A stretch of DNA of 40,060 nt from assembly GCA_964507605.1 (NCBI GenBank), contig CAZDQA010000001.1, positions 1 through 40,060 of the forward strand, read 5' to 3'. Every line of letters begins with the position of its first letter. Position 1 is the stretch's first letter. This DNA is from an uncultured Pseudomonadales bacterium. Its GTDB lineage: Bacteria > Patescibacteriota > Microgenomatia > UBA1400 > CG1-02-47-37. The position numbers were made by a program, and so were the translations under genes. The notes beneath the pieces were generated by a model. It ran no database searches. It worked only from the letters and a program-made list of their open reading frames with translations, and had not been told where the DNA came from. Shown here piece by piece: positions 3,671 through 35,524 of the stretch.

Positions 3671-3696
3671 ACCTGCAAGGAACATCCTTGTAGGCC
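3671..3696. repeat. REP-like hairpin copy H1
   Basis: a-CCTGCAAGG-aacat-CCTTGTAGG-cc. The stem is 9 bp with one G:T at stem position 4. It lies between the J-domain gene and the ICMT-like gene. Confidence 0.7.
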
Positions 3697-3716
3697 TGCA
3701 AAACCGTTCCAAATAG

Positions 3717-3725
3717 TGCTAGAAT
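3717..3725 (+). promoter_or_regulatory. Extended -10 promoter (TGcTAGAAT), leaderless spacing
   Basis: TAGAAT at 3720-3725 and ATG at 3733, a 7-nt gap. Confidence 0.5.
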
Positions 3726-3732
3726 TACATTA

Positions 3733-4200
3733 ATGAAATTAAGGACTGTTTTACTGGCTTTATTATTCGGCACTTGTATTTGGATAATTTTCCCTTACTT
3801 GGTGATTAAACTGAATCAGTTTTTAGGCTTGCCCTCGTGGCATTTTTGGCCCTTGCAGATCCTCGGTTGGATTTTAATAATCTGCGGCATCACGGTTTTT
3901 GCCCATTTAACCTTACTATTTAAAGTATTTGGCGAAGGAACGCCCGTGCCCACCGAGCCGCCCCAGAAATTTGTCCTTGAAAGCCTGTATCACCGCAGCC
4001 GCAATCCGATGTATTTGTGCTATTTTATTATTATCTTGGGCGAATGGCTGGTTTTTGGCAGCATTCTATTAATTGTCTATTTAGCTCTGTTTTGGTTGAA
4101 AGTAAACTTGTTTGTTGTTTTTTGGGAGGAGCCGGGTTTAAGAAAACGCTTTGGCAAAGAATATGCTGATTATTGTCACAAAATCCCGCGCTGGTTTTGA
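3733..4200 (+). CDS. ICMT/PEMT-family membrane methyltransferase
   Basis: 155 aa and multi-TM. It carries the family motif RSRNPMYLCYFIIILGEW followed by a C-terminal F/W-rich segment. Confidence 0.65.
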   Translation: MKLRTVLLALLFGTCIWIIFPYLVIKLNQFLGLPSWHFWPLQILGWILIICGITVFAHLTLLFKVFGEGTPVPTEPPQKFVLESLYHRSRNPMYLCYFIIILGEWLVFGSILLIVYLALFWLKVNLFVVFWEEPGLRKRFGKEYADYCHKIPRWF

Positions 4201-4205
4201 TATTA

Positions 4206-4230
4206 ACCTTCAGGGATCAACCCTGTAGGC
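4206..4230. repeat. REP-like hairpin copy H2
   Basis: a-CCTTCAGGG-atcaa-CCCTGTAGG-c, starting 6 nt after the ICMT-like stop codon. Confidence 0.7.
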
Positions 4231-4252
4231 GTGCAGAAACTATCTTAAATCG

Positions 4253-4261
4253 TGTTAGAAT
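4253..4261 (+). promoter_or_regulatory. Extended -10 promoter (TGtTAGAAT), leaderless spacing
   Basis: TAGAAT at 4256-4261 and ATG at 4270, an 8-nt gap. Confidence 0.5.
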
Positions 4262-4269
4262 ATAAATCA

Positions 4270-4629
4270 ATGAAATCTAAACCAAAAATTTCTATTTGCG
4301 GCCTGAATTGTAATGTTTGTCCAGCCTTTTTAGCTTATAAAAACAACGATCAGGATTTAAGAGTCAAAACCGCTAAAACTTGGGCCAAAGAATTCCATGA
4401 CCCAAGCATTAAACCAGAACATGTCAGCTGCCTTGGTTGTCTGTCTCTAAAACAACCTATCTATAAACATTGTTTGGAGTGTGGCGTGAGGTTATGCGGC
4501 TTAACTAAAGAAGTTAAAAACTGCGGCCACTGCGCCGCTTATAACACTTGTCCTAAAATTGCCAGCCTTCACCAATATATTCCCGAAGCCAAGCAAGTTT
4601 GTGACATGATTAAAAAATTAACCAAATGA
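4270..4629 (+). CDS. Cys-rich DUF3795-like protein
   Basis: Cys spacing CGLNCNVCPAF...CLGC...CLEC...CGHC..C is typical of DUF3795. I prefer the ATG at 4270 over the GTG at 4252 in the ORF track because of the promoter position. Confidence 0.55.
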   Translation: MKSKPKISICGLNCNVCPAFLAYKNNDQDLRVKTAKTWAKEFHDPSIKPEHVSCLGCLSLKQPIYKHCLECGVRLCGLTKEVKNCGHCAAYNTCPKIASLHQYIPEAKQVCDMIKKLTK

Positions 4630-5102
4630 AAATAAATATTCGCCGGGCTGATAAATCAGACGCAATCTTACTCCAGGATTTAAACCGTAAAATTATGGTT
4701 AACAATGTTCAATACGACCCTCGTTTCAATCCAAATTGGGAACAAACAGATTACGGCCGAAGTTTTTTTGAAGATCGATGCACGCAGCCGAATTGGTATA
4801 CCATTATTGCCGAAGCAGACGGGAAACCAATTGGTTATTTAAACGGATCAATTGATAATTTTGGCTATCGTTATCCTCAACTTCAGAAAGTCGCCGTAAT
4901 CGAAAACGTGGGAGTGATTCCGGAATACCAAAATAAAGGCATTGGTAAATTATTAATGGAAGATTTTAAAAAGTGGGCTAAAGAAAATAAAGCAATCCAA
5001 ATTCAACTAACCAGTTTTTCTAAAAATACCCAGGCCTTAGATTGGTATAAAAAATTAGGCTTTGAGCCGTCAGATATTATTTTACAAAAAGATATTAAGT
5101 AA
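4626..5102 (+). CDS. GNAT-family N-acetyltransferase
   Basis: 158 aa. The acetyl-CoA binding motif is VIPEYQNKGIGKLLM. Its start overlaps the previous stop (ATGA), indicating translational coupling. Confidence 0.8.
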   Translation: MKINIRRADKSDAILLQDLNRKIMVNNVQYDPRFNPNWEQTDYGRSFFEDRCTQPNWYTIIAEADGKPIGYLNGSIDNFGYRYPQLQKVAVIENVGVIPEYQNKGIGKLLMEDFKKWAKENKAIQIQLTSFSKNTQALDWYKKLGFEPSDIILQKDIK

Positions 5103-5127
5103 CCTACAGGATCCGACCCTGTAGGTT
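5101..5127. repeat. REP-like hairpin copy H3, between and overlapping convergent genes
   Basis: AACCTACAGG-atccgac-CCTGTAGGTT, a perfect 10-bp stem. It contains the last two bases of the GNAT TAA stop and encodes the last 8 codons plus the stop of the minus-strand kinase. Confidence 0.75.
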
Positions 5128-5850
5128 GATTATTGCCGCGCCGAGGGCGGTAGCGTATTCGGCCTGAGCAGGGAAAACAGGGGAGAGTTTAAACAAAGCG
5201 CAGACTTGGCGTAAATATTTTTGCATCAGCCGTTTGGTACTGACCCTGCCGGTAAAAATTAGGTTTTTTTCTTCAGTTTTTTGGGCGGCTAAACAAGCCA
5301 CCATGCCGATTGTTTCGGCCACCATGCCGATTAAACTTTGGGCCAGATCTTCCTTTCTAGTGGAGTTTATCTTGCCGAAATTGGCCGCCGTGGCTTCCGG
5401 CGGCAATAAACCAATCCCTTTGCCCAAAATATCGCCCACGGTTAAATCCACTTTAGTTTTATTACCTTTTCCTGCCAGCTTAAAGATTTCCTCCGCCTTT
5501 TTAGTTTTCAATAGCAGTTTACCTAAACCCTGAATTGTCCCGCCGCCCACCCCGGTTCCGCCCAAATGAATTGTTGGTTGATTTTTTCTGGCCCAAACAA
5601 CGGCTGTGCCCGTACCGCAGCTGACCACCACCGCTGATTTTAATCCTGCCAGGAACAAACCGCCTTTGCCTAAACACTCCAGTTCATTTTTCTCCCGTGT
5701 CGTCGTCATCGGGGTATTGCTAACCAGTTGTTTCAACCAGTTCTTAGTCAGCTTTACTTTTTCCACTGACCAGGTTTTTAATATTTTTTTACCGTCAAAC
5801 AGCACCGCGTCGACATAACTGGCCCCAAAATCAATTCCTAAAGTTTTCAT
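5104..5850 (-). CDS. coaW: Type II pantothenate kinase (CoaW-like, ASKHA fold)
   Basis: 248 aa with MKTLGIDFGAS, GGTGVGGGTIQGLGKLLL and PPEATAANFG. From memory these match the conserved blocks of staphylococcal-type PanK. The C-terminal INLQGRIL* is read from the hairpin repeat. Confidence 0.7.
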   Translation of the reverse strand: MKTLGIDFGASYVDAVLFDGKKILKTWSVEKVKLTKNWLKQLVSNTPMTTTREKNELECLGKGGLFLAGLKSAVVVSCGTGTAVVWARKNQPTIHLGGTGVGGGTIQGLGKLLLKTKKAEEIFKLAGKGNKTKVDLTVGDILGKGIGLLPPEATAANFGKINSTRKEDLAQSLIGMVAETIGMVACLAAQKTEEKNLIFTGRVSTKRLMQKYLRQVCALFKLSPVFPAQAEYATALGAAIINLQGRIL

Positions 5851-5856
5851 AATTTA

Positions 5857-5906
5857 ATTATAACTCCCTATTGACAAATAAATTACATATTCTATTATAC
5901 GAATAT
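5857..5906. promoter_or_regulatory. Divergent leaderless promoters (coaW / arsR-like) plus a 6-8-6 inverted-repeat candidate operator
   Basis: Plus strand: TTGACA 5871-5876, 16-nt spacer, TATTAT 5893-5898, ATG at 5905. Minus strand: TATAAT (complement of 5857-5862), 6-nt gap, ATG at 5850. The inverted repeat ATATTC(5887-5892)-N8-GAATAT(5901-5906) overlaps the + strand -10 and start. Confidence 0.55.
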
Positions 5907-6330
5907 GTATTTAGAAGTATTTAATAAACATGCTAAGTTGCTGCAAGCCTTAGCCCACCCTAAACGGTTGGAGATTTTAAACTTGTTAGCCCAAAAAAGT
6001 CTGACCGTGACCGAGATTTATTCCATGCTCGATCTGCCCCAGGCCAACATCAGTCAGCACTTAATTAAACTGCGTCAAGCCGGCGTGGTGGCCACTAAAC
6101 GCCTTGGCAAAGAAATTTATTACCGCTTGGCGTACAAGAAAATTAACCAATTTCTGCCCCAACATTTTAATTTATTAAAACTAACCCCCCTGGTTCATGA
6201 TCCGGTTTGCCAAATGCAGTTATCCCCTAAAACCGCAGTTTTAAAAAAGTCATATAATGGTCAGCAGTATTATTTCTGCGCCTCCGGTTGTTTAAAAAAG
6301 TTTACCACCCAGCCGCAAAAATATGTCTAA
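5905..6330 (+). CDS. ArsR/SmtB-family metalloregulator fused to a C-terminal YHS/TRASH metal-binding domain
   Basis: The winged helix-turn-helix region reads ALAHPKRLEILNLL...VTEIYSMLDLPQANISQHLIKLRQAGVV. The C-terminus DPVCQMQL...YYFCASGCLKKF is a YHS/TRASH signature. Confidence 0.8.
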   Translation: MYLEVFNKHAKLLQALAHPKRLEILNLLAQKSLTVTEIYSMLDLPQANISQHLIKLRQAGVVATKRLGKEIYYRLAYKKINQFLPQHFNLLKLTPLVHDPVCQMQLSPKTAVLKKSYNGQQYYFCASGCLKKFTTQPQKYV

Positions 6331-8449
6331 ATCCATCACTGCCAGCTTTAATATTACCGGCATGCACTGCTCCAGCTGTGCCAATCTTTTAACCAAGGCA
6401 ATCTCCAAAGTTCCCGGAGTTCTTTCTGCTCAGGTGACCTATACTACCGAAAAAGCTACGATCAATTACGATCCTGACAAAATCAACTGGCAAGAGCTTA
6501 AAACAACCGTCAGCTCGTTGGGCAGTTACCAAATTATTTTGCCAAACGAACCTTCAGTTGCCCACGCTCACCACCCCCAAAAAACCTTAAAAACCAAAGT
6601 TATCATTAGCGCCATTCTTACTCTCATTATCTTTGCCAATGAAATGCTCATGCTTGATTTTCTTCCGCGCCAACTCATTTTTATCCTCACCACCTTGGTT
6701 ATGTTTTATGCCGGCAGAGAGTTTTTCACCAATGCCTGGGCGGCTCTTAAAAAACTGACTGCCAATATGGATACTTTGATTGCCATGGGTACCGGCGCCG
6801 CCTATATCTACTCCACTGCCGTTATTTTTTCCCCGCAGCCCGTCTACTTTGACACTGCCGCCATGATTATTACTTTAATTCTTTTAGGCCGTTATCTTGA
6901 AGCCAAAGCCAAAGGCAAAGCTTCTGAGGCAATTAAAAAACTTCTTAATCTTCAGGTTAAAAAAGCTATTTTGTTTAAAAACGGTCAAGAAACAGAAGTC
7001 GATATTAATTTAGTGAAAAAAGGCGATCAGTTATTAGTTAAACCCGGGGCCAAAATCCCGGTCGACGCCATCATTATTAAAGGCCAATCCTATCTTGATG
7101 AATCTTTGGTTACCGGCGAGTCAGTCCCTGTCTTAAAAAAACCCGGCGACAAAGTTATCGGCAGTACCATTAACAAAAAAGGCCTGTTGATTATTCAGGC
7201 CACTGGCGTCGGCGAAGACACTTTGCTGGCCAACATTGTTAAGCTGGTTAACCAAGCCCAAAGCTCCAAAGCCCCGATTCAAAAGTTGGCCGATAAAGTC
7301 TCGGCAATTTTTGTCCCCACTGTGATTCTTTTATCCTTCCTGGCTTTTTTAGTTTGGCACTTTGTTTTTGGCTTAGCTTTTAGCCCGGCCCTGGCGATTG
7401 CCATTACTGTTTTAATTGTTTCCTGCCCCTGCGCTTTAGGTTTGGCCACCCCGATTTCCATTATGGTCGGCACCGGCCGGGGGGCCCAAAACGGCATCTT
7501 AATTAAAAATGCCGAAAAACTGCAAATTGCCGGTCGTTTACAAGCGATTGTTTTTGACAAAACCGGCACCTTAACTAAAGGTTCTTTTGCGGTCACCGAG
7601 ATTATTCCAACTAAAACTTCTGTTCCTCCCTCAAAAATTTTGCAACTTGCTGCTAGCCTTGAACAAGGCTCAGATCACCCGATTGCTGAAGCGATCGTTA
7701 AAAAGGCTAAAAACCAAAACCTTAAACTCTATCATCCCACCAACTTTCAAAATATCGAAGGTAAGGGGGTAAAAGGCACAATTAACCATCAAAAACTTCT
7801 TCTTGGTTACTGGGGTTTAATGAATCAGAAAAACACCAAGCCTTTTGGCCCCACCAATAAAACTATTACTTTTCTAAGTGTTGACGATCAAATTATTGGC
7901 GCTTTAGCCCTAGAAGATGAACCCAAAAAGATTGCCCGCTCCGTTATCGCCAAACTGCAACAGCTCGGGTTGGCAGTCTGGATGATCAGCGGCGACAATC
8001 AAACAGTGGCCGAAAATATTGGTAAGCGCCTGGGGATTAAACATATCTTGGCCAGTGTCCTGCCCAAAGATAAAGTTAATAAAGTCAAACAACTACAAAA
8101 ACAATATTCCTTGGTCGCTATGGTTGGCGATGGAATCAACGACGCTCCGGCTTTAGCCCAGGCCAATGTCGGTATTGCCATGGCCACCGGTACTGATGTG
8201 GCCATTGAAGCCGGCGACATTACTTTACTTCGCGGCGATTTGCAGTTGATTAATCAAACCATTGCTTTATCCCGGGTCACCATGACTAATATTAAGCAGA
8301 ATTTATTCTGGGCTTTTGGTTATAATTCATTATTAATTCCCGTGGCGATGGCCGGTTTAATTAACCCGATCTTTGCCAGCGCCGCCATGGCCCTGTCTTC
8401 TTTATCCGTCGTCTTAAATGCTTTAAGACTAAAAAAAATTAAACTATGA
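6323..8449 (+). CDS. copA: Copper-translocating P1B-type ATPase
   Basis: 708 aa with an N-terminal HMA domain (GMHCSSCA), TGES, the CPC motif (SCPCALGLATP), DKTGTLT and GDGINDAPAL. Confidence 0.92.
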   Translation: MSKSITASFNITGMHCSSCANLLTKAISKVPGVLSAQVTYTTEKATINYDPDKINWQELKTTVSSLGSYQIILPNEPSVAHAHHPQKTLKTKVIISAILTLIIFANEMLMLDFLPRQLIFILTTLVMFYAGREFFTNAWAALKKLTANMDTLIAMGTGAAYIYSTAVIFSPQPVYFDTAAMIITLILLGRYLEAKAKGKASEAIKKLLNLQVKKAILFKNGQETEVDINLVKKGDQLLVKPGAKIPVDAIIIKGQSYLDESLVTGESVPVLKKPGDKVIGSTINKKGLLIIQATGVGEDTLLANIVKLVNQAQSSKAPIQKLADKVSAIFVPTVILLSFLAFLVWHFVFGLAFSPALAIAITVLIVSCPCALGLATPISIMVGTGRGAQNGILIKNAEKLQIAGRLQAIVFDKTGTLTKGSFAVTEIIPTKTSVPPSKILQLAASLEQGSDHPIAEAIVKKAKNQNLKLYHPTNFQNIEGKGVKGTINHQKLLLGYWGLMNQKNTKPFGPTNKTITFLSVDDQIIGALALEDEPKKIARSVIAKLQQLGLAVWMISGDNQTVAENIGKRLGIKHILASVLPKDKVNKVKQLQKQYSLVAMVGDGINDAPALAQANVGIAMATGTDVAIEAGDITLLRGDLQLINQTIALSRVTMTNIKQNLFWAFGYNSLLIPVAMAGLINPIFASAAMALSSLSVVLNALRLKKIKL

Positions 8450-9426
8450 ACTTACTGGCTATTTTCTTTACCGGCCTAACTACCGGCGGCATCTCCTGTT
8501 TAGCCGTCCAGGGCGGGTTATTGGTGAGTTTAATTGCCAGTTCCAAACTAAAAAATCTTGCCGTCTTAATGTTTTTATTAAGCAAAGCCATTACCTATGC
8601 AATTTTAGGTTTCTTATTAGGTTTATTTGGTTCTAAAATCAGTTTAAATCCGATCATTGCCGCTGTTTTTCAGGTTTTTACCGTCTTGTTTATGTTCGCT
8701 ACTGCCATGAATTTATTAAATGTTCACCCTATTTTTAGATATTTGACGATTACCCCGCCCCGGTTTGTCCGGCGCTTATTAAAAAACAGCGGTAAAAGCG
8801 AAGCTATGTTCACTCCTTTAATCTTAGGCGCTTTGACAGTCTTGATTCCCTGCGGCGTCACCCAGGCAATGGAGGTGTTGGCGATCAACAGTGCTAACCC
8901 GGTCCAGGGAGCCTTAATTATGTTGTTTTTTGTTTTGGGCACTGCCCCCCTGTTTGTTTTATTCGGTGTATCTGCCGCCAGGTTTTCCGAAGCCTGGCAA
9001 GTCCAGTTTAGCCGGGTGGCCAGCGCTTTACTGATTATCTTTTCTTTATATGTGTTTAATTCCAGCTTGATTTTATTTAATTCACCAATTACTTTGACTA
9101 CCTTAACACGGCCGGTGCGCTGGTTTTTTTCCGCCGAGCGGTTTGAATCTAACCCGGCCAATAACCAAGTTACTATTAACATTAATAACTCCGGTTACAG
9201 CCCGAAATATTTTCAGGTCAAAGTCAACCAGCCGGTCAAATTAACCCTTATTAGTCACAATGTCCGCTCCTGCGCCCTGGCTTTTGTCTTTAAATCATTT
9301 AATATTCGGGCAATCTTAAAGCCCACCGATGAACAAACCTTTACCTTTACCCCCACCAAAATCGGTAGTTATACCTACTCTTGTTCCATGGGGATGTATA
9401 GTGGAACAATGGAGGTAATCCAATGA
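8446..9426 (+). CDS. Polytopic membrane protein (DsbD_2/TauE-like) fused to a C-terminal cupredoxin-like domain
   Basis: 326 aa. The N-terminus is multi-TM with GGISCLAVQGG and IPCGVTQAM. The C-terminal ~90 aa form a beta-rich domain ending YTYSCSMGMYSGTMEV, a Cys/Met ligand pattern. The gene is translationally coupled to copA and copZ. Confidence 0.55.
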   Translation: MNLLAIFFTGLTTGGISCLAVQGGLLVSLIASSKLKNLAVLMFLLSKAITYAILGFLLGLFGSKISLNPIIAAVFQVFTVLFMFATAMNLLNVHPIFRYLTITPPRFVRRLLKNSGKSEAMFTPLILGALTVLIPCGVTQAMEVLAINSANPVQGALIMLFFVLGTAPLFVLFGVSAARFSEAWQVQFSRVASALLIIFSLYVFNSSLILFNSPITLTTLTRPVRWFFSAERFESNPANNQVTININNSGYSPKYFQVKVNQPVKLTLISHNVRSCALAFVFKSFNIRAILKPTDEQTFTFTPTKIGSYTYSCSMGMYSGTMEVIQ

Positions 9427-9635
9427 AACAAACAATAATTTTTTCTCTTTCCGGCCTGCACTGTATTAGTTGTGCTCTAAATATTGATAATAGCCTGGAA
9501 GACTTGCCCGATGTTTTTAAAGTTCAAACCAATTATCCCAAAAGCCAAACTAAAGTTGAGTTTGATCCGCAAAAAATTACCCCGGTTAAACTGATTAAAA
9601 CCATTAAGTCCCTTGGTTATAATGTGTTAGAATGA
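9423..9635 (+). CDS. copZ: Heavy-metal-associated (HMA) copper chaperone
   Basis: 70 aa with GLHCISCA, an MxCxxC-type motif. A ferredoxin-like fold is expected at this length. Confidence 0.8.
   Translation: MKQTIIFSLSGLHCISCALNIDNSLEDLPDVFKVQTNYPKSQTKVEFDPQKITPVKLIKTIKSLGYNVLE
9625..9633 (+). promoter_or_regulatory. Extended -10 promoter (TGtTAGAAT) inside the copZ 3' end, leaderless spacing for the next gene
   Basis: TAGAAT at 9628-9633 and ATG at 9640, a 6-nt gap. Confidence 0.4.
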
Positions 9636-9639
9636 ACTC

Positions 9640-10602
9640 ATGGAACAAAAACTGCCTGTAGATTTACAGAAAAAAATTGAGGAAATGAAAGCCTATACCA
9701 AGCCTGAGCAAATGACTCAGTATCTTAATTTAATTAGCGCTTTGCCTTGGGACCAATTAAGCGATGATTGCCTGGACTTAAATAAAGCCAAGGAAATTAT
9801 GGATAAGCACCACTATGGCATGAAAGAAGTTAAAGATAAAATTTTAGAATATTTATCAGTCATGACCTTAACCCGCGGCAAAGAAGAAGCCACCAGAGCG
9901 CCCATGCTTTGTTTAGTCGGTTTAGTCGGCACCGGTAAAACTACTTTTGGCCAATCTTTGGCCGAAGCTTTGAACCGTCAATTTGTCCGGATTCCTTTCG
10001 GCGGTCTGGGCTCTGCTCTTGATCTACGCGGCCAGTCCCGGCTGCACCCCGACGCTGAGCCTGGGTTAATTATTAAAGCCCTGAGGCGGGCCAAAACAAG
10101 AAATCCGGTTTTACTGCTGGACGAGATCGACCGGGTCACCGACGCCTCCCGGGCAGATATTATGGGTGTTTTAGTCGAGCTGTTAGACCCGGAACAAAAT
10201 TCGCAGTTTACCGATCATTATCTTGACTACCCTTTTAACCTATCCGATGTTCTGTTTGTCGCCACCGCCAACAATACCCGGAATATTGCTACCGCGGTTT
10301 TAGACCGTTTGGAAGTGATTCAAATGCCCTCCTATACTGATGAAGAAAAAACCTCTATTGCCAAAGATTATATTTTGCCCCGGGTTTTAAACGAGTCCGG
10401 CTTATCCGCTGATAACTTAACCATTGACGATGATGTCTGGACTAATATCGTCCGGCCTTTAGGTTTTGATGCCGGTTTAAGAACCTTAGAAAGAACGATT
10501 GAAGGCATCTGTCATCAGCTGGCCCGCTCCATTGTTGAAGATAAAGCCAAACACTTTCACTTAACCAAAGCCAATATTAAAAATTATTTACCCAGTTATT
10601 AA
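9640..10602 (+). CDS. Stand-alone Lon-type AAA+ ATPase module (no N-domain, no protease domain)
   Basis: 320 aa. It is collinear with the Lon ATPase core: LPW..LDLNKAKEIMDKHHYGMKEVKDKILEYLSV, Walker A GLVGTGKTT, Walker B LLLDEIDR, LLDPEQNSQFTDHYLDYPFNLSDVLFVATAN, LDRLEVIQMPSYT and GLRTLERTIEGICHQLA. The ORF stops where the Lon S-K protease domain would begin. Confidence 0.8.
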   Translation: MEQKLPVDLQKKIEEMKAYTKPEQMTQYLNLISALPWDQLSDDCLDLNKAKEIMDKHHYGMKEVKDKILEYLSVMTLTRGKEEATRAPMLCLVGLVGTGKTTFGQSLAEALNRQFVRIPFGGLGSALDLRGQSRLHPDAEPGLIIKALRRAKTRNPVLLLDEIDRVTDASRADIMGVLVELLDPEQNSQFTDHYLDYPFNLSDVLFVATANNTRNIATAVLDRLEVIQMPSYTDEEKTSIAKDYILPRVLNESGLSADNLTIDDDVWTNIVRPLGFDAGLRTLERTIEGICHQLARSIVEDKAKHFHLTKANIKNYLPSY

Positions 10603-10604
10603 AA

Positions 10605-10617
10605 TATAACCGTTATA
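10605..10617. promoter_or_regulatory. Perfect 13-bp palindrome TATAAC-C-GTTATA upstream of rnj
   Basis: Read directly from the sequence. It sits in a 41-bp AT-rich intergenic region. TATAAA at 10632-10637 lies 6 nt before the ATG at 10644. Confidence 0.4.
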
Positions 10618-10643
10618 ACGATTATAAAAATTATAAACATTAT

Positions 10644-11981: not shown

Positions 11982-11987
11982 ATTAAT

Positions 11988-15500: not shown

Positions 15501-15506
15501 TTTTTG

Positions 15507-15515
15507 TGTTATACT
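15507..15515 (+). promoter_or_regulatory. Extended -10 promoter (TGtTATACT), leaderless spacing
   Basis: TATACT at 15510-15515 and ATG at 15524, an 8-nt gap. Confidence 0.4.
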
Positions 15516-15523: not shown

Positions 15524-15811
15524 ATGTTAACTTTATCCCAAGTCATACTGGTTATTGTCGTTACCATTCTCTCTATTTTATTGATTATTTTTTCCATCTA
15601 TATTTTCCGGATCCTGGATGAATTGAAAAAGACTTTGCAAAAAACTAACTCCATGATGGATGACATGAAACGGATTACCAAATCTGTGGCTGACCCGATC
15701 GAGCACGTCTCTGAATTTATCTCCGGTCTTAAAAAAGGCGCTAAATTGGTAGAGCTGGCCGGGGAATTAGTCTCCAAAAAAGAATCTCATGACCGAAGAA
15801 GAAAAGAATAA
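15524..15811 (+). CDS. DUF948/YtxG-like small membrane-anchored protein
   Basis: 95 aa with an N-terminal TM helix followed by a coiled-coil. It is paired with a YtxH-like gene, as in Firmicutes ytxGH. Confidence 0.5.
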   Translation: MLTLSQVILVIVVTILSILLIIFSIYIFRILDELKKTLQKTNSMMDDMKRITKSVADPIEHVSEFISGLKKGAKLVELAGELVSKKESHDRRRKE

Positions 15812-29336: not shown

Positions 29337-29338
29337 AT

Positions 29339-29851: not shown

Positions 29852-29854
29852 TAT

Positions 29855-30334
29855 ATGTCCAGATCAGGAAAAATCACCAAAATCACCATTGCCCCCGACC
29901 CGATTTATAACAGCCGTTTAGTGGCCAAAATCATCAATGTGGTCATGAAAGCCGGTAAAAAATCAATTGCCCAAAAACAAGTCTATCAAGCCTTGGATAT
30001 TTTAAAAGAAAAAACCAAAGCCGATCCCTTAAATACCCTGCGCCAGGCCTTAGATAATGTTAAACCTTCCATGGAAGTCCGCTCCCGCCGCATCGGCGGC
30101 GCCGCTTACCAGGTGCCTTCTCCCGTCAGGGGAGACCGCAAAGAATCATTGTCCATTCGCTGGGTGATTAATGCCGCCCGGGCCCGGTCTAATCGGGAAT
30201 TTCATCGTTTTTCCGAAAAGTTAGCCGCCGAACTTTTCGATGCCTTAAATAATCAGGGCGGCGCAATCGAAAAGAAAAACCAGATGACAAAAATGGCCGA
30301 AGCCAATAAAGCTTTCAGTCACTTTAGATGGTAG
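29855..30334 (+). CDS. rpsG: 30S ribosomal protein S7
   Basis: 159 aa with DPIYNSRLVAKIIN, GKKSIAQK, MEVRSRRIGGAAYQVP and ANKAFSHFRW. Confidence 0.95.
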   Translation: MSRSGKITKITIAPDPIYNSRLVAKIINVVMKAGKKSIAQKQVYQALDILKEKTKADPLNTLRQALDNVKPSMEVRSRRIGGAAYQVPSPVRGDRKESLSIRWVINAARARSNREFHRFSEKLAAELFDALNNQGGAIEKKNQMTKMAEANKAFSHFRW

Positions 30335-30367
30335 TATTGTGGCTTCTTTTATAGTGGTTATGATTTT

Positions 30368-30382
30368 TATAACAGTTATAAT
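30368..30382 (+). promoter_or_regulatory. Perfect 13-bp palindrome TATAAC-A-GTTATA overlapping a TATAAT -10 element, leaderless spacing
   Basis: Palindrome at 30368-30380, TATAAT at 30377-30382 and ATG at 30391, an 8-nt gap. Confidence 0.45.
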
Positions 30383-30390
30383 CGTTATTA

Positions 30391-30894: not shown

Positions 30895-30962
30895 TTTTTT
30901 CTTCTTTATAACGATTTATAACTTTTATGATTTTTATAATTTTTATGTTTTAAACTTTTTTG

Positions 30963-30971
30963 TGCTAAACT
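30963..30971 (+). promoter_or_regulatory. Extended -10 promoter (TGcTAAACT), leaderless spacing
   Basis: TAAACT at 30966-30971 and ATG at 30978, a 6-nt gap. Confidence 0.4.
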
Positions 30972-30977
30972 TAAATC

Positions 30978-31706
30978 ATGGAACCAATCCCGCCAACGGC
31001 GATTCCTCCCCAGCCTCCCATTCCTCCCGTCCCGCCCCCACCGTCGGTTCCGCCCGTTATGCCCCCACCCCCTCCCAAGAAAAAATCCTTTGCCTGGCTA
31101 ATTATCTTGATAATCTTTTTACTTCTTGCCTCCACCGGCGTTTTGGCCTATCAGTACTATCAGCTTAAAACTCAAATAGCCGCCCCTACCCCCAATCCGT
31201 CTCTCACTCCTTCTCCAACTTTAAACCAAGTTATCTCACCAGAACTAACAGCTGAACAAGATGCAACCCTTGACACAACTGCCAACTGGAAAACATATAA
31301 TAATACCTTTTATTCTTTTCGGATAGATTACCCGGTTAGGTTTGAGATTGTTGAAAAAACCAAACGCGAAGATTACTATGACACACTCGCCACATTAACA
31401 TCATCATTCAAAGAATCGATTACCCTCAAAGCAATACATGATATTGATATCTATGAAAAAAATGGGCCAGAAATGGTGGCAGAGCGGGAAGTAATGGACA
31501 GCGGGTTTATATATAATATTACTACCACTAAAATCGGTGATTATTTTGCGGCCATCACTACTTTTGACAACAACCCCGATAAAAAATCTCCTACCATCAC
31601 TATTGCCCACCCCAGTAAGAATCTTTTTATAGTTATTGACATTAACACCGACCTTTCTCGAGTCGAGTTTGACCAAATCCTCGCCACCTTTAAATTCACC
31701 AACTAA
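30978..31706 (+). CDS. Hypothetical surface protein with a Pro-rich cytoplasmic N-terminus, TM anchor and extracytoplasmic domain
   Basis: 242 aa. MEPIPPTAIPPQPPIPPVPPPP...KKKSFAWLIILIIFLLL, then a W-x-TY...YP domain ending FDQILATFKFTN. It is a paralog of the next gene. Confidence 0.7.
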   Translation: MEPIPPTAIPPQPPIPPVPPPPSVPPVMPPPPPKKKSFAWLIILIIFLLLASTGVLAYQYYQLKTQIAAPTPNPSLTPSPTLNQVISPELTAEQDATLDTTANWKTYNNTFYSFRIDYPVRFEIVEKTKREDYYDTLATLTSSFKESITLKAIHDIDIYEKNGPEMVAEREVMDSGFIYNITTTKIGDYFAAITTFDNNPDKKSPTITIAHPSKNLFIVIDINTDLSRVEFDQILATFKFTN

Positions 31707-31709
31707 TTT

Positions 31710-32840
31710 ATGGACAACCCACCTATTCAACCACCAATTCCTCCCACCCCCCTCGTCTCGCCGGAGCCCCCCCAGAAAAAATCCCTTGCCTGGCTGATTA
31801 TTCCTCTGCTGATCTTTCTTTTAGCCTTCGGCGGCTACTTTGTTATCCAAATTAATAAATTCAAACAACAACTTAACCAGCCGACGTCTACTGCTGCCCC
31901 CAGCCCGGTTGTTGTTTTACCCTCGCTTTCACCCGATCTCACTGCCGATTGGCAAACCTACACCAATCAAAAACAGAGCTACTCTCTTAAATATCCGACT
32001 TCCTGGCAGATTAACGAAACCGGCGCCACGGTCGACATTAACAATAAACTTACCCTTGCTAAAGATAACTACATTATTACCATTTATGCCAACATTCAGG
32101 GCATTGGGGGAACGGCCAAACAAGTTCCCTCCATCCCGATTACTGTCGCCGGTTTAAATTTATTCAAAAGAGACATCGGTGACAATCTTTATGAAAACAC
32201 CGGCTCTTTTGAAATCAGCGCCAGCGACTCCAGCCCGACCTTTAAGTATCAAGACAAAACTTACGAAATTTATCTCACTTACCCGTTAGCGGAAAAGGGG
32301 ACCCAAGCCTATTTAGCCAACCTGCAAACTTTCGACCTCATCCTCTCCACCTTTAAATTTGTCGATAGTATCGAGCCAGAATCATCTCCATCAACGCCAT
32401 TAGCAAAAATCCCGACGATATCCACCGACAACTGGAAGAGTGCCAGTAATAACGGAGTTCAATTTAAAATTCCCCCGGAAGCTACTTGCAATGATAATCA
32501 AGCTTGCACCTTAATATCTTGGACTTCTGAATATCAGGGAAATACGCTTTATCACAATATTCGCGTTGAGGTAAAAGATTATCTTGGAGGCTCAAGGAGA
32601 GAACAATTTTATCAAAACACTAAACCGGAATGTCATGATATTTATCAAGAAGCCAGTTTTGGCCCGGTTATAGCCCTGCAAATTGCCATTGACGGCGGTT
32701 GGTGCCAAGGTGGTGGTGGAGGCATTGTCACGGTTATTGGCAACAAATTAGTTATTGTCCACAATCTTTTTTATAACCTGGAAACAAAAGTTATCGATCG
32801 TTGGGACGTTCGGGATACGCTTGTATCAACTTTAAATTAA
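31710..32840 (+). CDS. Hypothetical surface protein, a paralog of 30978..31706 with an extra C-terminal Cys-containing domain
   Basis: 376 aa. MDNPPIQPPIPPTP...KKSLAWLIIPLLIFLL, DWQTYTNQKQSYSLKYP and FDLILSTFKFVD. Confidence 0.7.
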   Translation: MDNPPIQPPIPPTPLVSPEPPQKKSLAWLIIPLLIFLLAFGGYFVIQINKFKQQLNQPTSTAAPSPVVVLPSLSPDLTADWQTYTNQKQSYSLKYPTSWQINETGATVDINNKLTLAKDNYIITIYANIQGIGGTAKQVPSIPITVAGLNLFKRDIGDNLYENTGSFEISASDSSPTFKYQDKTYEIYLTYPLAEKGTQAYLANLQTFDLILSTFKFVDSIEPESSPSTPLAKIPTISTDNWKSASNNGVQFKIPPEATCNDNQACTLISWTSEYQGNTLYHNIRVEVKDYLGGSRREQFYQNTKPECHDIYQEASFGPVIALQIAIDGGWCQGGGGGIVTVIGNKLVIVHNLFYNLETKVIDRWDVRDTLVSTLN

Positions 32841-32842
32841 CC

Positions 32843-32989
32843 ATGGACCAACCAATCCCTTCCACCCCCTTTGTCTCGCCGAAGCCTACGGCGAAGGCGG
32901 AGCCGGTTTTTACCCAAACCCCGGTCGCGCCGGAACCGCCTAAAAAATCCTCCAAATGGTTGATTAACCTGCAGGGTCCGACCCTGTAG
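32843..32989 (+). pseudogene. 5' fragment of a third Pro-rich anchored paralog, cut off at hairpin H4
   Basis: MDQPIPSTPFVSPKP...PPKKSSKWLI matches the N-terminus of both neighbours up to the first residues of the TM helix. It then reads NLQGPTL* out of the hairpin repeat. Confidence 0.65.
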
Positions 32990-32992
32990 GCC
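32967..32992. repeat. REP-like hairpin copy H4
   Basis: a-CCTGCAGGG-tccga-CCCTGTAGG-cc followed by TTATTTTT. It abuts the stop codon of minus-strand gene 32993..33475. Confidence 0.75.
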
Positions 32993-33475
32993 TTATTTTT
33001 CCTGACACTCTATTCTTGCTTCAACAGTAAATTTACTATCCACCCTCAGGAATATATCTGCCGGCGTACCTAATTCTTCAAAGATGATTAACGCCTCTTT
33101 TTCAAATCCTAAACCCTCGTCTGGGATAACCATTACTCCCGGCGCTGCCTGTATTGGTGAACCACGTCGAATCAAACATATTTCATCTTCACCTTTTCTC
33201 ATAAAAACTTCTGCTCTGCCACAGCTGACAACTGCGACTGTGGGTTTTCCGCTTGCAATCTTTTTATATTTAGCAGGATTAGGGTAAATAAAAACGCCTT
33301 CGTCTTGTCTGTTTGGATCGCCGGGGGCGGTTAAAAATTCCCCTTCTTGTGTTGGTTTCCAAATTGGCTGCCTAAGTTTATCGGTGATTTCTATTGATTG
33401 CCAGGCTGGTCTTCGTTCTCCCTCAACCCCTCTTTGTCCTGCCGCTTCTCTTATTGAAACTTGAATAGATACCAT
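32993..33475 (-). CDS. Hypothetical protein (cassette gene 1)
   Basis: 160-aa ORF preceded by the shared promoter/stem-loop module. It shares short motifs (PIWKP; GRAEVF..KG) with the 142-aa cassette protein. I recognise no family. Confidence 0.6.
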   Translation of the reverse strand: MVSIQVSIREAAGQRGVEGERRPAWQSIEITDKLRQPIWKPTQEGEFLTAPGDPNRQDEGVFIYPNPAKYKKIASGKPTVAVVSCGRAEVFMRKGEDEICLIRRGSPIQAAPGVMVIPDEGLGFEKEALIIFEELGTPADIFLRVDSKFTVEARIECQEK

Positions 33476-33492
33476 AAATTTTTTACTAAAAA

Positions 33493-33528
33493 TCTCTGCT
33501 TCGGGCAGAGATAATTAAAATTATAACA
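33493..33528 (-). promoter_or_regulatory. Shared module copy a: extended -10 promoter plus 19-nt stem-loop
   Basis: On the coding strand: TGtTATAAT (complement of 33520-33528), 8 nt, then TCTCTGCCCGAAGCAGAGA (33511-33493), 17 A/T-rich nt and the ATG at 33475. Confidence 0.55.
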
Positions 33529-33546
33529 TTTCCCTGACAAAATACT

Positions 33547-33572
33547 ACCTACAAGGTCCAACCTTGCAGGCC
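33547..33572. repeat. REP-like hairpin copy H5
   Basis: a-CCTACAAGG-tccaa-CCTTGCAGG-cc followed by TTTTATTTTTT. It ends 2 nt before the stop of minus-strand gene 33575..33784. Confidence 0.75.
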
Positions 33573-33574
33573 TT

Positions 33575-33784
33575 TTATTTTTTCTTCTCCGGTTGGTGGA
33601 TAAAAAACATTCTTTCCGTGTCAATTTCCGGAATCACCACTGCCAAAGGGTTATTGTCTGCCCCCCCCACAACCTGAGCTTTTAACTCTTTAATTGCCAC
33701 ATAAGGTTCATCATCTTCATGATTGCTGTAATTAATCATTGTTCCCGGCTTAATCGTGATTGTTTTTATTTCTGGTTGGGTCAT
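33575..33784 (-). CDS. Hypothetical small protein
   Basis: 69-aa ORF. On the coding strand TAAAAT lies 5 nt before the ATG, which is leaderless-type spacing. No stem-loop module and no recognisable family. Confidence 0.4.
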   Translation of the reverse strand: MTQPEIKTITIKPGTMINYSNHEDDEPYVAIKELKAQVVGGADNNPLAVVIPEIDTERMFFIHQPEKKK

Positions 33785-33810
33785 AAGCTATTTTACTCTA
33801 TTTTTCCCGC

Positions 33811-33839
33811 TTGCTTTTCCCAAAGAGAGAGAGTAATAT
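33811..33839 (+). promoter_or_regulatory. Promoter of small ORF copy 1 (TTGCTT-N17-TAATAT) with (AG)5 in the spacer
   Basis: TTGCTT at 33811-33816, (AG)5 at 33824-33833, TAATAT at 33834-33839 and ATG at 33848, an 8-nt gap. Confidence 0.5.
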
Positions 33840-33847
33840 TCTGGTCA

Positions 33848-34072
33848 ATGGGATTAGAAATAGGAATACAACAAGCAAAGATGGGCGCCGTTGGTGATGA
33901 GTTTAAAACAGCCACTCCGCCCCCGCCATTAGCTCCAAGAGAGTTAACACCTGCGCAAATTGTTGCCGGTCCTGATATTGGTCAAATGCAAGATTTAGCC
34001 GGCCAAATCGGCCAGTTAGCTCAGGCCCCCCAAAAAGTTGAAGCCCCTGCAACCCCCACTCCAGCTCAATAA
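33848..34072 (+). CDS. Small Pro/Gln/Ala-rich protein, family copy 1
   Basis: 74 aa: MGLEIGIQQAKMGAVGDEFKTATPPPPLAPRELTPAQIVAGPDIGQMQDLAGQIGQLAQAPQKVEAPATPTPAQ. The same frame stays open in the diverged third copy. Confidence 0.5.
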   Translation: MGLEIGIQQAKMGAVGDEFKTATPPPPLAPRELTPAQIVAGPDIGQMQDLAGQIGQLAQAPQKVEAPATPTPAQ

Positions 34073-34108
34073 TTTCCTTAAACTTTTTCCTAGAGAGATT
34101 TATCATGA

Positions 34109-34134
34109 TCCTTCAAGGTCCGTCCCTGAAGGCC
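34109..34134. repeat. REP-like hairpin copy H6 (also a plausible intrinsic terminator for the + small ORF)
   Basis: t-CCTTCAAGG-tccgt-CCCTGAAGG-cc followed by TTATTTTATT. It lies between convergent genes. Confidence 0.75.
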
Positions 34135-34139
34135 TTATT

Positions 34140-34568
34140 TTATTCGCTGAAAGCGCCCACAATTTTGATTTCTTTTACCGGTTGGCCGTCAACTTTTATA
34201 GTTAATCCCATAGTGGCGCCGGAATGGAAAAATATTTCTGCTCTGCCTCCTTTAGCGCTGGCGCGGTCGTTCACGATGGTGACTGGGCCAATGGTTTCTG
34301 GTTCATCTATAGTAATTAATCCCTTTTCTCCCCAAAACACTTCAGCCCCCCCACTGCTGTTGATGCCAATGCCTCCGAATGGTTTAGTATTAAAATTAAA
34401 ATAAACCCCGTCATACTTATTGCCGTTTTCCGGCTTCCAAAGGGGAATGTCTGTATTATAAAATCCATGGGGGAATTTAGGATGTTCTGTCCAGCCTTCA
34501 TTTGGTCTTGGTTCACGCTCCTGGCTTGAAATGGGATCTCTGGTAAAAATCTGTAAATCCAAATTCAT
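34140..34568 (-). CDS. Hypothetical protein (cassette gene 2, copy 1)
   Basis: 142 aa from the ATG at 34568 (MNLDLQIF...). The TTG-extended 152-aa version in the ORF track would translate the stem-loop itself. It has an internal motif repeat GGAEVFWGEKG / GGRAEIFFHSG. No recognisable family. Confidence 0.6.
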   Translation of the reverse strand: MNLDLQIFTRDPISSQEREPRPNEGWTEHPKFPHGFYNTDIPLWKPENGNKYDGVYFNFNTKPFGGIGINSSGGAEVFWGEKGLITIDEPETIGPVTIVNDRASAKGGRAEIFFHSGATMGLTIKVDGQPVKEIKIVGAFSE

Positions 34569-34576
34569 ATAAAAAA

Positions 34577-34630
34577 TCTCTGCTTCGGGCAGAGACAAAT
34601 GTAATATACCTTAGTCTCGACAAATGTCAA
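34577..34630 (-). promoter_or_regulatory. Shared module copy b: TTGACA-N16-TATATT promoter plus 19-nt stem-loop
   Basis: On the coding strand: TTGACA (complement of 34625-34630), TATATT (34603-34608), 7 nt, then TCTCTGCCCGAAGCAGAGA (34595-34577), 8 nt and the ATG. Confidence 0.6.
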
Positions 34631-34640
34631 GGTTTTGTGA

Positions 34641-34666
34641 ACCTTCAGGGTTGATCCCTGTAGGCC
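34641..34666. repeat. REP-like hairpin copy H7
   Basis: a-CCTTCAGGG-ttgat-CCCTGTAGG-cc. It sits between the back-to-back minus and plus promoters. Confidence 0.75.
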
Positions 34667-34697
34667 TTGCTTTTCCCAGAGAGAGAGAGAGTAATAT
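34667..34697 (+). promoter_or_regulatory. Promoter of small ORF copy 2 (TTGCTT-N19-TAATAT) with (AG)7 in the spacer
   Basis: TTGCTT at 34667-34672, (AG)7 at 34678-34691, TAATAT at 34692-34697 and ATG at 34706. Confidence 0.45.
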
Positions 34698-34705
34698 TCT
34701 GGTCA

Positions 34706-34930
34706 ATGAGATTAGAAATCGGCATACAACAAGCAAAGCTGGGCGCCGTTGGTGATGAGTTTAAAACAGCCACTCCGCCCCCGCCGTTAGCTCCAAGAGA
34801 GTTAACACCTGCGCAAATTGTTGCCGGTCCTGATATTGGTCAAATGCAAGATTTAGCCGGCCAAATCGGCCAGTTAGCTCAGGCCCCCCAAAAAGTTGAA
34901 GCCCCTGCAACCCCCACTCCAGCTCAATAA
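34706..34930 (+). CDS. Small Pro/Gln/Ala-rich protein, family copy 2
   Basis: 74 aa. It differs from copy 1 only at residues 2 and 12 (MRLEIGIQQAKL...). Confidence 0.5.
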   Translation: MRLEIGIQQAKLGAVGDEFKTATPPPPLAPRELTPAQIVAGPDIGQMQDLAGQIGQLAQAPQKVEAPATPTPAQ

Positions 34931-34966
34931 TTTCCTTAAACTTTTTCCTAGAGAGATTTATCATGA

Positions 34967-34992
34967 TCCTTCAAGGTCCGTCCCTGAAGGCC
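34967..34992. repeat. REP-like hairpin copy H8 (identical to H6)
   Basis: Lies within the 858-bp duplicate. Confidence 0.75.
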
Positions 34993-34997
34993 TTATT

Positions 34998-35426
34998 TTA
35001 TTCGCTGAAAGCGCCCACAATTTTGATTTCTTTTACCGGTTGGCCGTCAACTTTTATAGTTAATCCCATAGTGGCGCCGGAATGGAAAAATATTTCTGCT
35101 CTGCCTCCTTTAGCGCTGGCGCGGTCGTTCACGATGGTGACTGGGCCAATGGTTTCTGGTTCATCTATAGTAATTAATCCCTTTTCTCCCCAAAACACTT
35201 CAGCCCCCCCACTGCTGTTGATGCCAATGCCTCCGAATGGTTTAGTATTAAAATTAAAATAAACCCCGTCATACTTATTGCCGTTTTCCGGCTTCCAAAG
35301 GGGAATGTCTGTATTATAAAATCCATGGGGGAATTTAGGATGTTCTGTCCAGCCTTCATTTGGTCTTGGTTCACGCTCCTGGCTTGAAATGGGATCTCTG
35401 GTAAAAATCTGTAAATCCAAATTCAT
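34998..35426 (-). CDS. Hypothetical protein (cassette gene 2, copy 2; identical to 34140..34568)
   Basis: Identical translation in the ORF track. Confidence 0.6.
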   Translation of the reverse strand: MNLDLQIFTRDPISSQEREPRPNEGWTEHPKFPHGFYNTDIPLWKPENGNKYDGVYFNFNTKPFGGIGINSSGGAEVFWGEKGLITIDEPETIGPVTIVNDRASAKGGRAEIFFHSGATMGLTIKVDGQPVKEIKIVGAFSE

Positions 35427-35434
35427 ATAAAAAA

Positions 35435-35488
35435 TCTCTGCTTCGGGCAGAGACAAATGTAATATACCTTAGTCTCGACAAATGTCAA
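35435..35488 (-). promoter_or_regulatory. Shared module copy c (identical to copy b)
   Basis: Lies within the 858-bp duplicate. Confidence 0.6.
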
Positions 35489-35498
35489 GGTTTTGTGA

Positions 35499-35524
35499 AC
35501 CTTCAGGGTTGATCCCTGTAGGCC
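35499..35524. repeat. REP-like hairpin copy H9 (identical to H7)
   Basis: Lies within the 858-bp duplicate. Confidence 0.75.

Follow-up and report, generated by a model that had tools for sequence, protein, structure and literature searches.

REP-like hairpins lie at rearrangement junctions in a Microgenomates genome and probably have a RAYT-like Y1/HUH transposase as their partner

We describe a family of nine short palindromes in a 40,060-nt stretch of DNA, called the window throughout, from an uncultured bacterium that the GTDB taxonomy places in the Microgenomatia (assembly GCA_964507605.1, contig CAZDQA010000001.1, positions 1 to 40,060 of the forward strand). The palindromes are probably non-autonomous hairpins like the repetitive extragenic palindromes (REPs) of other bacteria and appear specific to one clade of the candidate phyla radiation (CPR), the Microgenomates (Beckwithbacteria, Collierbacteria and relatives). 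Their cognate enzyme is likely to be a Y1/HUH single-stranded DNA (ssDNA) transposase that resembles the REP-associated tyrosine transposases (RAYTs), is encoded elsewhere in the genome, and would cut and rejoin DNA at the hairpins. The same 23-nt sequence is concentrated around and within the gene for such an enzyme in related CPR genomes, and the hairpins in the window coincide with the junctions of segments that have been inserted, truncated or exchanged relative to close relatives. From these findings we infer that the transposase may mobilize the DNA lying between the hairpins as cassettes.

Results

Nine copies of a 23-nt palindrome at gene borders

A search of the window for CCTNCANGG-N5-CCNTGNAGG with at most two mismatches returned nine matches, at 3672-3694 (H1), 4207-4229 (H2), 5103-5125 (H3), 32968-32990 (H4), 33548-33570 (H5), 34110-34132 (H6), 34642-34664 (H7), 34968-34990 (H8) and 35500-35522 (H9). 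This corresponds to 0.22 per kb in the window, where the chance expectation is 0.07 matches in all and 100 dinucleotide-preserving shuffles of the window gave at most one. An earlier reading of this DNA, made from the letters alone (the sequence-only reading), had proposed a nine-copy family with coordinates one nucleotide lower because it included a flanking A. All nine copies are real, but only seven are independent, since an 858-bp tandem duplication at 33810-35523 (units of 856 and 858 bp) carries H6 and H7 and has produced H8 and H9 as their duplicates. The family consensus is the palindrome CCTNCARGG-N5-CCYTGNAGG, with a 9-bp stem and a 5-nt loop. A looser scan of the whole 40 kb (up to three mismatches, loops of 3-9 nt, or single half-sites) added no copies and no isolated half-sites, and a search of the window against Rfam at its gathering thresholds was negative.

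None of the nine copies is in the interior of an open reading frame (ORF); they sit at gene borders, as the sequence-only reading had claimed, and are confined to two accessory regions. In the first of these, H1 (CCTGCAAGG-AACAT-CCTTGTAGG; RNA folding energies -14.9/-12.3 kcal/mol) lies between a relocated 357-aa gene and a PEMT/ICMT-like gene. H2 (CCTTCAGGG-ATCAA-CCCTGTAGG), 6 nt past the PEMT stop codon, and H3 (CCTACAGGA-TCCGA-CCCTGTAGG), which abuts the GNAT stop codon and includes that of Fumble, are the left and right ends of a DUF3795-GNAT insertion. In the second region, H4 (CCTGCAGGG-TCCGA-CCCTGTAGG) is followed by a T-run, is terminator-like on the + strand, and forms the left border of a cassette array between rpsG and fusA. 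H5 (CCTACAAGG-TCCAA-CCTTGCAGG) has the promoter of a 160-aa gene on one side and a stop codon, that of a 69-aa ORF, on the other, H6 (CCTTCAAGG-TCCGT-CCCTGAAGG) has convergent genes on either side, and H7 (CCTTCAGGG-TTGAT-CCCTGTAGG) has divergent promoters on either side. Two genes make up the duplicated unit, a short ORF on the + strand that is proline-rich and a minus-strand gene for a 142-aa protein; its repeat units start immediately after H7 and H9, the first unit lacks a hairpin at its left end, and a diverged partial third unit follows at 35524-35810.

The roughly 27 kb between the two regions contain neither copies nor half-sites, in agreement with the sequence-only reading, but the stretch that it described as housekeeping includes Fumble and a copper-resistance cluster (5.1-9.6 kb), which also vary between relatives. 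Because this segment (5104-9640) is missing from the collinear interval 10517-12589 of a related locus, L211 (related loci are referred to by L numbers), it too is an accessory part of the 27 kb. The assignment of all copies to the same strand was likewise overstated. Since the search pattern and its reverse complement are identical, a "+" strand call says nothing about orientation, which has to be read from the flanks (AA...CC in eight of nine copies) and from the loops; these can flip on identical stems, as ATCAA in H2 and TTGAT in H7 illustrate.

Pairing within the stem

Covariation was assessed in 93 unique copies from the window and its relatives, which are not phylogenetically independent of one another. 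Stem position 7 is Watson-Crick paired in 71 copies versus 50.7 under shuffling, the remainder being A.C or G.T, and position 4 is Watson-Crick paired in 48 versus an expected 27.6, with A/A or T/T in 32. None of 10,000 shuffles attained the observed pairing at either position, and after collapsing the set to 38 distinct stems the p values were 0.005 for position 4 and 0.025 for position 7. Compensatory changes are also found at position 6 (CCTACGAGG...CCTCGTAGG) and at position 9 (GGA...TCC in L213). The covariation that the sequence-only reading had seen at position 7 is real, yet partial, and its clean version was overstated; the mismatch it described as tolerated at position 4 is tolerated, even though Watson-Crick pairs occur there above expectation. 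As judged from these alignments, the data fit a predicted intrastrand stem in which position 4 tolerates a mismatch. Tolerated stem mismatches are likewise known from other Y1 substrates. Predicted stabilities, taken over both strands, range from -9 to -17 kcal/mol as RNA and from -5 to -9 kcal/mol as DNA, and the folding energies of the window copies reveal no consistent strand preference.

A Y1/HUH transposase gene as the partner

The rpsG-fusA interval of a Beckwithbacteria locus, L070, carries five copies of the hairpin in 1.8 kb, the first of them directly after rpsG. The minus-strand ORF that follows this rpsG-adjacent copy belongs to Pfam Y1_Tnp, the IS200-like HUH transposases (8.5e-11; 42.5 bits against a cut-off of 23). 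Two in-frame hairpins lie inside the ORF and one more just upstream of its start, and the gene is followed by a homologue of the window's secreted protein and then by a hairpin beside the fusA promoter. The Y1 protein, of about 220 aa with a C-terminal extension of about 70 aa, displays the motifs YHxYNRG, NHFH (the HUH motif) and YLSKYIHRNP (YIHRNP). It has 7447 homologues at E <=1e-10, the best of which are all from Patescibacteria and one of which is labeled RayT by JGI.

Because a sequence-profile search of the PDB was weak, returning only the ISDra2 TnpA at E ~0.4, a fold search was used instead. Among PDB entries, the one that best matches the AlphaFold model of the protein (predicted local distance difference test score, 75.7; predicted template modeling [TM] score, 0.77) is 4er8 (E 2e-4, TM 0.61), a structure of the E. 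coli REP-associated tyrosine transposase in complex with a REP hairpin, followed by the transposases of IS608, ISDra2 and IS200. The model has two low-confidence loops, at residues 53-65 and 153-165, and the peptides encoded by the internal hairpins both map to them.

Another member of the family, P0013, is encoded on contig CAZYUF010000001.1 of the metagenome-assembled genome (MAG) GCA_964650605.1, the same MAG that contains L051 and L016 with their dispersed hairpin copies. The Y1 gene of this MAG is on contig 1 and the hairpin-bounded cassettes upstream of fusA are on contig 2; L051 and the window are 86% identical at the start of fusA. The P0013 gene lies in the order CofD-Y1-GlmS-MurA-MurB-MurC in all 10 of the places shown and is apparently single copy, which matches the single-copy, domesticated-like behavior of RAYTs described in PMC5581495.

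Hairpin and transposase are tightly associated

How closely the two go together was measured in 80 homologous transposase loci from metagenomes (729 kb), with the gene module defined as the transposase gene plus or minus 100 nt and the part outside modules amounting to 658 kb. The 23-mer occurs at 1.6 per kb in the module versus 0.027 per kb outside it. At least 22 independent loci have all four of its fixed sites, at about -38 from the ATG, at +149, at +453 and 5-19 nt past the stop codon. The four copies of one module have the same loop or its reverse complement, in no fixed orientation pattern, while the loops vary between loci; the repertoire (TCCAA/TTGGA, TCCGT/ACGGA, ACAGT/ACTGT, AGACT/AGTCT, ATCAA/TTGAT, TCCGA/TCGGA and others) contains every loop of the window. 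The in-frame hairpins at the two internal sites of the transposase genes in L124-L173 (2149 and 2453 in L125, for example) change along with the flanking copies. In our view, the sequences of the module copies point to concerted evolution or to self-targeting by the enzyme.

In homologues at 44-62% identity that do not have the 23-mer motif, the same places in the module are occupied by different palindromes, for example ACTTCAGGTA-gag-TACCTGAAGT, ACTTTAAGGGA-gac-TCCCTTAAAGT, ACCTAGGGG-tccgt-CCCCTAGGT and TAGCTTCGCAAG-gccaggc-CTTGCGAAGCTA. The peptide encoded at the first internal site varies with the palindrome (NLQGQSLQV, KLQVEYLKL, YFKGVSLKV, NPRGPSPRL). It is thus the DNA palindrome that is conserved and that tracks the enzyme lineage, which is a hallmark of REP-RAYT pairs (PMC6006769). 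The proposal in the sequence-only reading that the element might be a palindrome like REPs or miniature inverted-repeat transposable elements gains support here, since in related CPR genomes a RAYT-like Y1 gene has this 23-mer as its cognate hairpin.

Occurrence beyond the window

When one genome from each GTDB species was scanned with a tightened pattern, the matches listed were mostly chance hits in high-GC genomes, so that only the low-GC ones are informative. Nearly all of the low-GC matches listed are from CPR/Microgenomates genomes (Beckwithbacteria, Collierbacteria, "Microgenomates group", Patescibacteria and other bins). Conservation of a 23-mer over several candidate families is unlike an ordinary terminator stem. 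A phage origin was considered and rejected: IMG/VR returned 37 single hits, consistent with chance.

Away from the transposase modules, 28 of the 49 copies in related loci lie outside long ORFs, though 89% of the bases there are inside long ORFs. The others, which make up about 40% and come from L040, L073, L126, L123 and further CPR loci, fall within long ORFs; some may represent in-frame insertions into ordinary genes, like those reported for REPs elsewhere. Hairpin clusters that have no genes between them and resemble bacterial interspersed mosaic elements (BIMEs) were found in L144, L141 and L123. The L144 cluster (15560-15790) packs three hairpins, each with a loop of its own, into 160 nt and is flanked on both sides by a further family of inverted repeats, TTCCACCT..AGGTGGAA.

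Hairpins at junctions with relatives

Comparison with relatives yielded an exact pair of filled and empty sites. In L212, the PEMT stop codon is followed by 3 nt and then by the 3' end of Fumble, with neither a hairpin nor DUF3795-GNAT. The window and L213 have, exactly at this PEMT/Fumble junction, ATTAA followed by H2, a promoter, DUF3795, GNAT and H3 (4201-5125 in the window, + strand), and in the alignment the homology between window and L212 picks up again 0-1 nt beyond H3. A long target duplication, considered from the overlap of PEMT and Fumble in L212, was dropped once filled and empty sites had been aligned. The hairpin at the position of H2 differs between the window and L213 at about one-third of its bases beside a nearly identical promoter, which suggests replacement rather than drift. 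Upstream of this segment, the PEMT promoter directly follows PNPase in L211 and L213, with no hairpin, and the window has at this place the inserted 357-aa gene, H1 and about 21 nt; in L211 the 357-aa gene is found after PEMT.

The left border of the second region is marked by a truncated gene. Protein and DNA alignments identify 32843-32967 (+ strand) as the first 41 or so codons of a paralogue of the secreted proteins encoded at 30978-31706 and 31710-32840, and the homology of this remnant ends 1-2 nt before H4, so that the gene has been cut off at the hairpin. The variable array that begins here (32968-36527), in the str operon between rpsG (29855-30334) and fusA (36600-38747), has different contents in different relatives. 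In L070 and L124 the rpsG-fusA gap holds the Y1 module and one secreted protein. In L051 it holds three hairpins and, separated by them, two units whose small genes are unrelated; the last of these hairpins abuts the fusA promoter, and homology with the window begins right after it. In L204-L209 it holds a PIN-MazE array encoding paralogues of the 142-aa protein of the window, a cassette protein whose few homologues (four) lead to a relative with none of the 23-nt hairpins in its array. Two copies of another palindrome, of 46 nt (AAACCTATG..GACGCTGTAGCGTTG..TAGGTTT), lie at gene borders in L204, at 10439-10484 and 12263-12308. The exact filled and empty site, the gene truncated at H4, and a close relative in which the same hairpins enclose other cassettes together support the suggestion in the sequence-only reading that the palindrome is a cassette-boundary site.

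Gene context of the two accessory regions

Region 1 begins with S15 and PNPase (329-2479) and continues through the 357-aa gene, H1, the PEMT/ICMT-like gene, H2, DUF3795 and GNAT to H3, after which come Fumble (minus strand), the copper-resistance cluster (ArsR-type regulator, P-type ATPase, DsbD/cupredoxin, HMA), AAA/Lon-lid, RNase J, FtsK and further genes. Region 2 sits in the str operon, where S12 (29339) and S7 (29855) are followed by a VTT-domain protein, the two paralogous secreted proteins and the 3.6-kb array with H4-H9 at its gene borders, and then by EF-G (36600) and EF-Tu (38779). The genes of the array have no Pfam match and possess their own promoters. The other main ORFs of the window are housekeeping genes (AlaRS, sortase, RuvX, YceG, RpoB, RpoC). 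Exact-protein look-ups found no identical record for the window proteins at 329-2479, 32993-33475 and 35860-36438; for other window proteins they led only to short contigs of identical sequence and thus to no strain variant of the array. Paralogous proline-rich, single-pass membrane or secreted proteins are encoded 3' of rpsG in several species (30978-31706, 31710-32840 and 32843-32967 in the window; 3645-4574 in L070).

A second hairpin family, (A/G)TCTCTGCCCGAAGCAGAGAT plus a T-run, occurs on the minus strand at 33492-33512, 34576-34596, 35434-35454 and 36465-36485, just 3' of strong promoters and immediately ahead of the start codon in each of four cassette genes on that strand. TTGACA-16-TATATT is the sequence of three of the promoters, and the fourth, at 33540-33511, is a weaker TTGTCA-18-AATTAT. 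The element looks like a 5' leader stem-loop common to unrelated genes, serving as an mRNA stabilizer or attenuator. A stem-loop with a T-run, ATCGCTTC..GAAGCGAT, lies between the fusA promoter and start codon at 36572-36594; this EF-G leader is attenuator-like and is kept in three species (window, L051 and L070). Extended -10 elements, TG(C/T)TAGAAT, occur 6-8 nt before the ATG with no Shine-Dalgarno sequence at 3716-3735 and 4253-4272 in the window and at 9985-10003 and 11606-11622 in L211; this spacing, seen in many genes, suggests that leaderless mRNAs may be common in the lineage.

Discussion

The closest known counterpart of this system is the REP/RAYT pair, or REPtron, formed by TnpA_REP enzymes and their palindromes and exemplified by yafM of E. 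coli and by the REP doublets (REPINs) of Pseudomonas (Nunvar 2010, PMC2817692; Bertels and Rainey 2011, PMC3116915; Quentin 2018, PMC6006769). The elements described here are likewise short, GC-rich, imperfect palindromes in intergenic DNA. In the relatives, although not in the window, a Y1/HUH gene is flanked by its own palindromes, each transposase has a lineage-specific palindrome, synteny is conserved, and the gene is apparently single copy. The best fold match is 4er8, and the Y motif, Y---NP, is the class 2 signature. The system differs from described REPtrons in the form of the hairpin (a 9-bp stem and a 5-nt loop), in that the window copies occur singly, with genes between them, and not as REPIN doublets, in its low density away from the gene, and in its CPR host.

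Within class 2, TnpA-Y1 subclass 2.1 is defined by NH[YF]H, FQ and Y[IV]HLNP motifs, a length of about 238 aa and a C-terminal extension (Quentin 2018, PMC6006769). With NHFH, FQG and YIHRNP motifs, about 220 aa and the extension of about 70 aa, our protein matches this subclass best, by motif only and not by phylogeny. Members of subclass 2.1 have been reported to have no associated REPs, some having terminal inverted repeats (PMC6006769), whereas the arrangement found here is clearly REPtron-like. Subclass 2.4, from Cyanobacteria and Bacteroidetes, has REPs in frame inside tnpA_REP, as variable insertions between HuH and Y (PMC6006769). The present genes similarly contain non-disrupting REP copies in their reading frame, in surface loops, but at two fixed sites, the first preceding HuH and the second following Y, family-wide and always matching the flanking hairpins. 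The IS200/IS605 elements and their non-autonomous derivatives, the palindrome-associated transposable elements (PATEs), also share a Y1/HUH enzyme, subterminal ssDNA hairpins and a hairpin at each end of a segment. The hairpin-bounded segments here differ in having neither tnpA nor tnpB, in that neighboring segments share one hairpin, and in that the left and right hairpins are identical in sequence, with no target or cleavage tetranucleotide found.

If the palindromes are REP-like substrates of such an enzyme, a plausible sequence of events can be outlined. ssDNA exposed at replication forks or in transcription bubbles would allow the palindrome to fold into its 9-bp stem, the mismatch at position 4 being tolerated. 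The Y1 enzyme, acting in trans, would then bind the hairpin and cut and rejoin DNA beside it. Through such reactions hairpins would spread or be replaced and would become favored break-and-join points, and DNA bounded by two of them would behave as a cassette. As a secondary effect, the copies with T-runs (H4-H6 and H8) probably act as terminators or 3'-end stabilizers of the flanking units.

Several observations weigh against this interpretation. Pfam scans and gene calls found no transposase or integrase among the main ORFs of the window, as the sequence-only reading had already noted for RAYT-type transposases and integrases, and binding and cleavage of the 23-mer hairpin by the Y1 enzyme is a step that we infer. 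The protein scores 35-41 bits against the NCBIfam model REP_Tyr_transpos (NF047646), below its cut-off of 80. The 5' GT[AG]G foot of REPs was not found in the 23-mer, GTAG being confined to the 3' arm of copies that have T at position 4'; the flanks are not conserved, and no conserved cleavage or target motif was found around the copies. The low density away from the transposase gene (0.027 per kb) makes a high-copy REP population, with tens to hundreds of copies per genome, only putative. The copies share ancestry, so that the covariation figures are only indicative. Finally, the variable rpsG-fusA array of L204-L209 contains none of the CCTNCARGG hairpins, and other variable junctions have no hairpin either, namely B3/gene C, gene C/fusA and the place where the copper/Fumble segment ends on its right.

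Some of these points lend themselves to a different explanation, which we regard as possible though rather unlikely: that the hairpins are of REP type but play no role in gene movement and simply insert or persist where they are tolerated, in short intergenic gaps within DNA that is already variable and non-operonic. As insertion would be tolerated only in such gaps, copies would coincide with cassette borders by default. The intergenic preference of the non-module copies is general, hairpins are missing from the L204-L209 array and from some variable junctions, and the BIME-like clusters in L144, L141 and L123 contain no genes, all of which this explanation would accommodate. It is harder to reconcile with the ends of the H2..H3 indel, which fall 0-6 nt from the hairpins on both sides, with H4, which interrupts a coding sequence rather than occupying a pre-existing gap, or with the intergenic gaps of the core region, at least seven of which have no copy.

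We think it improbable that the hairpins are nothing but intrinsic, partly bidirectional terminators or stabilizers of mRNA 3' ends. Their RNA stems are stable (-9 to -17 kcal/mol), T-runs follow H4, H5, H6 and H8 on the + strand, and H3, H6 and H8 lie between convergent genes, yet a simple terminator scan passes only H4 (+ strand) and H5 (- strand), and terminator-like sites overall are not above shuffles. H1 and H2 have no T-runs and lead straight into TGnTAGAAT promoters situated 6-8 nt ahead of the ATG, H7 and H9 are each flanked by divergent promoters, and the layout of a stem plus U-run does not fit H1, H2, H3, H7 and H9. Moreover, the 23-nt sequence is kept across CPR families and occurs twice in frame, without T-runs, in a conserved gene. 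The sequence-only reading had reasoned that a motif found after most genes would be no more than the preferred terminator of the organism; no copy follows a housekeeping gene in the 27-kb core, and the density in 658 kb of related contigs is the low value given above. Its terminator option finds no support as a sole function, although several copies probably also terminate transcription. Given the hairpins inside conserved coding sequence and the misfit contexts, termination is at most a secondary, co-opted function of some copies. Co-opted termination of this kind is known for E. coli REPs.

We consider it very improbable that the palindrome serves as a double-stranded operator or insulator site for a dimeric protein, with one half-site CCTWCARGG per arm. 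Such a role would explain why position 4 is often A/A or T/T, leaving a W on each arm unpaired, and why H1, H2, H7, H9 and the copy upstream of the transposase gene abut or overlap promoters. It would not explain the excess of Watson-Crick pairs at positions 4 and 7 or the compensatory changes at positions 6 and 9, which argue for selection on an intrastrand stem; the partner gene encodes an enzyme of single-stranded DNA whose closest solved relative is bound to a hairpin, and the window contains no isolated half-sites.

An integron-type system, in which the palindromes would be attC-like sites of a tyrosine recombinase, is extremely unlikely: small accessory genes here do lie between imperfect, ssDNA-folding palindromes at a fixed chromosomal site with strain-differing cassettes, a PIN-MazE toxin-antitoxin pair occurs in the homologous array of a relative, and the conserved hairpin beside the fusA promoter in L070 and L051 resembles an attachment site, but no integrase (IntI) was found in the window or adjoining hairpins in the loci examined, the flanks have no R/L boxes (RYYYAAC...GTTRRRY), the element is 23 nt long where attC sites, with their R''/L''...L'/R' boxes and extrahelical bases, measure 57-141 nt, the cassettes have their own promoters and lie in both orientations, and the consistent partner is a Y1/HUH gene.

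Returning to the reading of the palindromes as REP-like hairpins with a RAYT-like partner, a more ambitious version would be a cassette system, analogous to integrons yet chemically unrelated to them, that consists of a domesticated RAYT-like HUH enzyme and a 23-nt hairpin. We put this forward only tentatively and regard it as doubtful at present. If it is correct, DNA between hairpins would be excised and re-inserted at another hairpin, such as the conserved one beside the fusA promoter; strain-specific arrays would be built in this way within the str operon, and the same reaction would keep the four hairpins of each transposase module identical.

The genomes of CPR/Patescibacteria, small as they are, usually count as poor in mobile DNA, and we found no description of REPs or a RAYT in CPR, Patescibacteria or Microgenomates among the papers listed by our literature searches. 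The results presented here indicate a lineage-wide system of the REP/RAYT type in these bacteria. Its hairpins provide a marker for sites of gene gain and loss, including a hotspot inside the rpsL-rpsG-fusA-tuf operon. In addition, the dozens of natural, matched pairs of transposase and hairpin variants, with the hairpin present even inside the gene of the enzyme, constitute a data set on how Y1/HUH enzymes read hairpins, and the long-open question of how RAYTs act on REPs becomes directly testable in this system. Should the hairpins indeed delimit mobile cassettes, they would represent a second, independent route to gene-cassette arrays.

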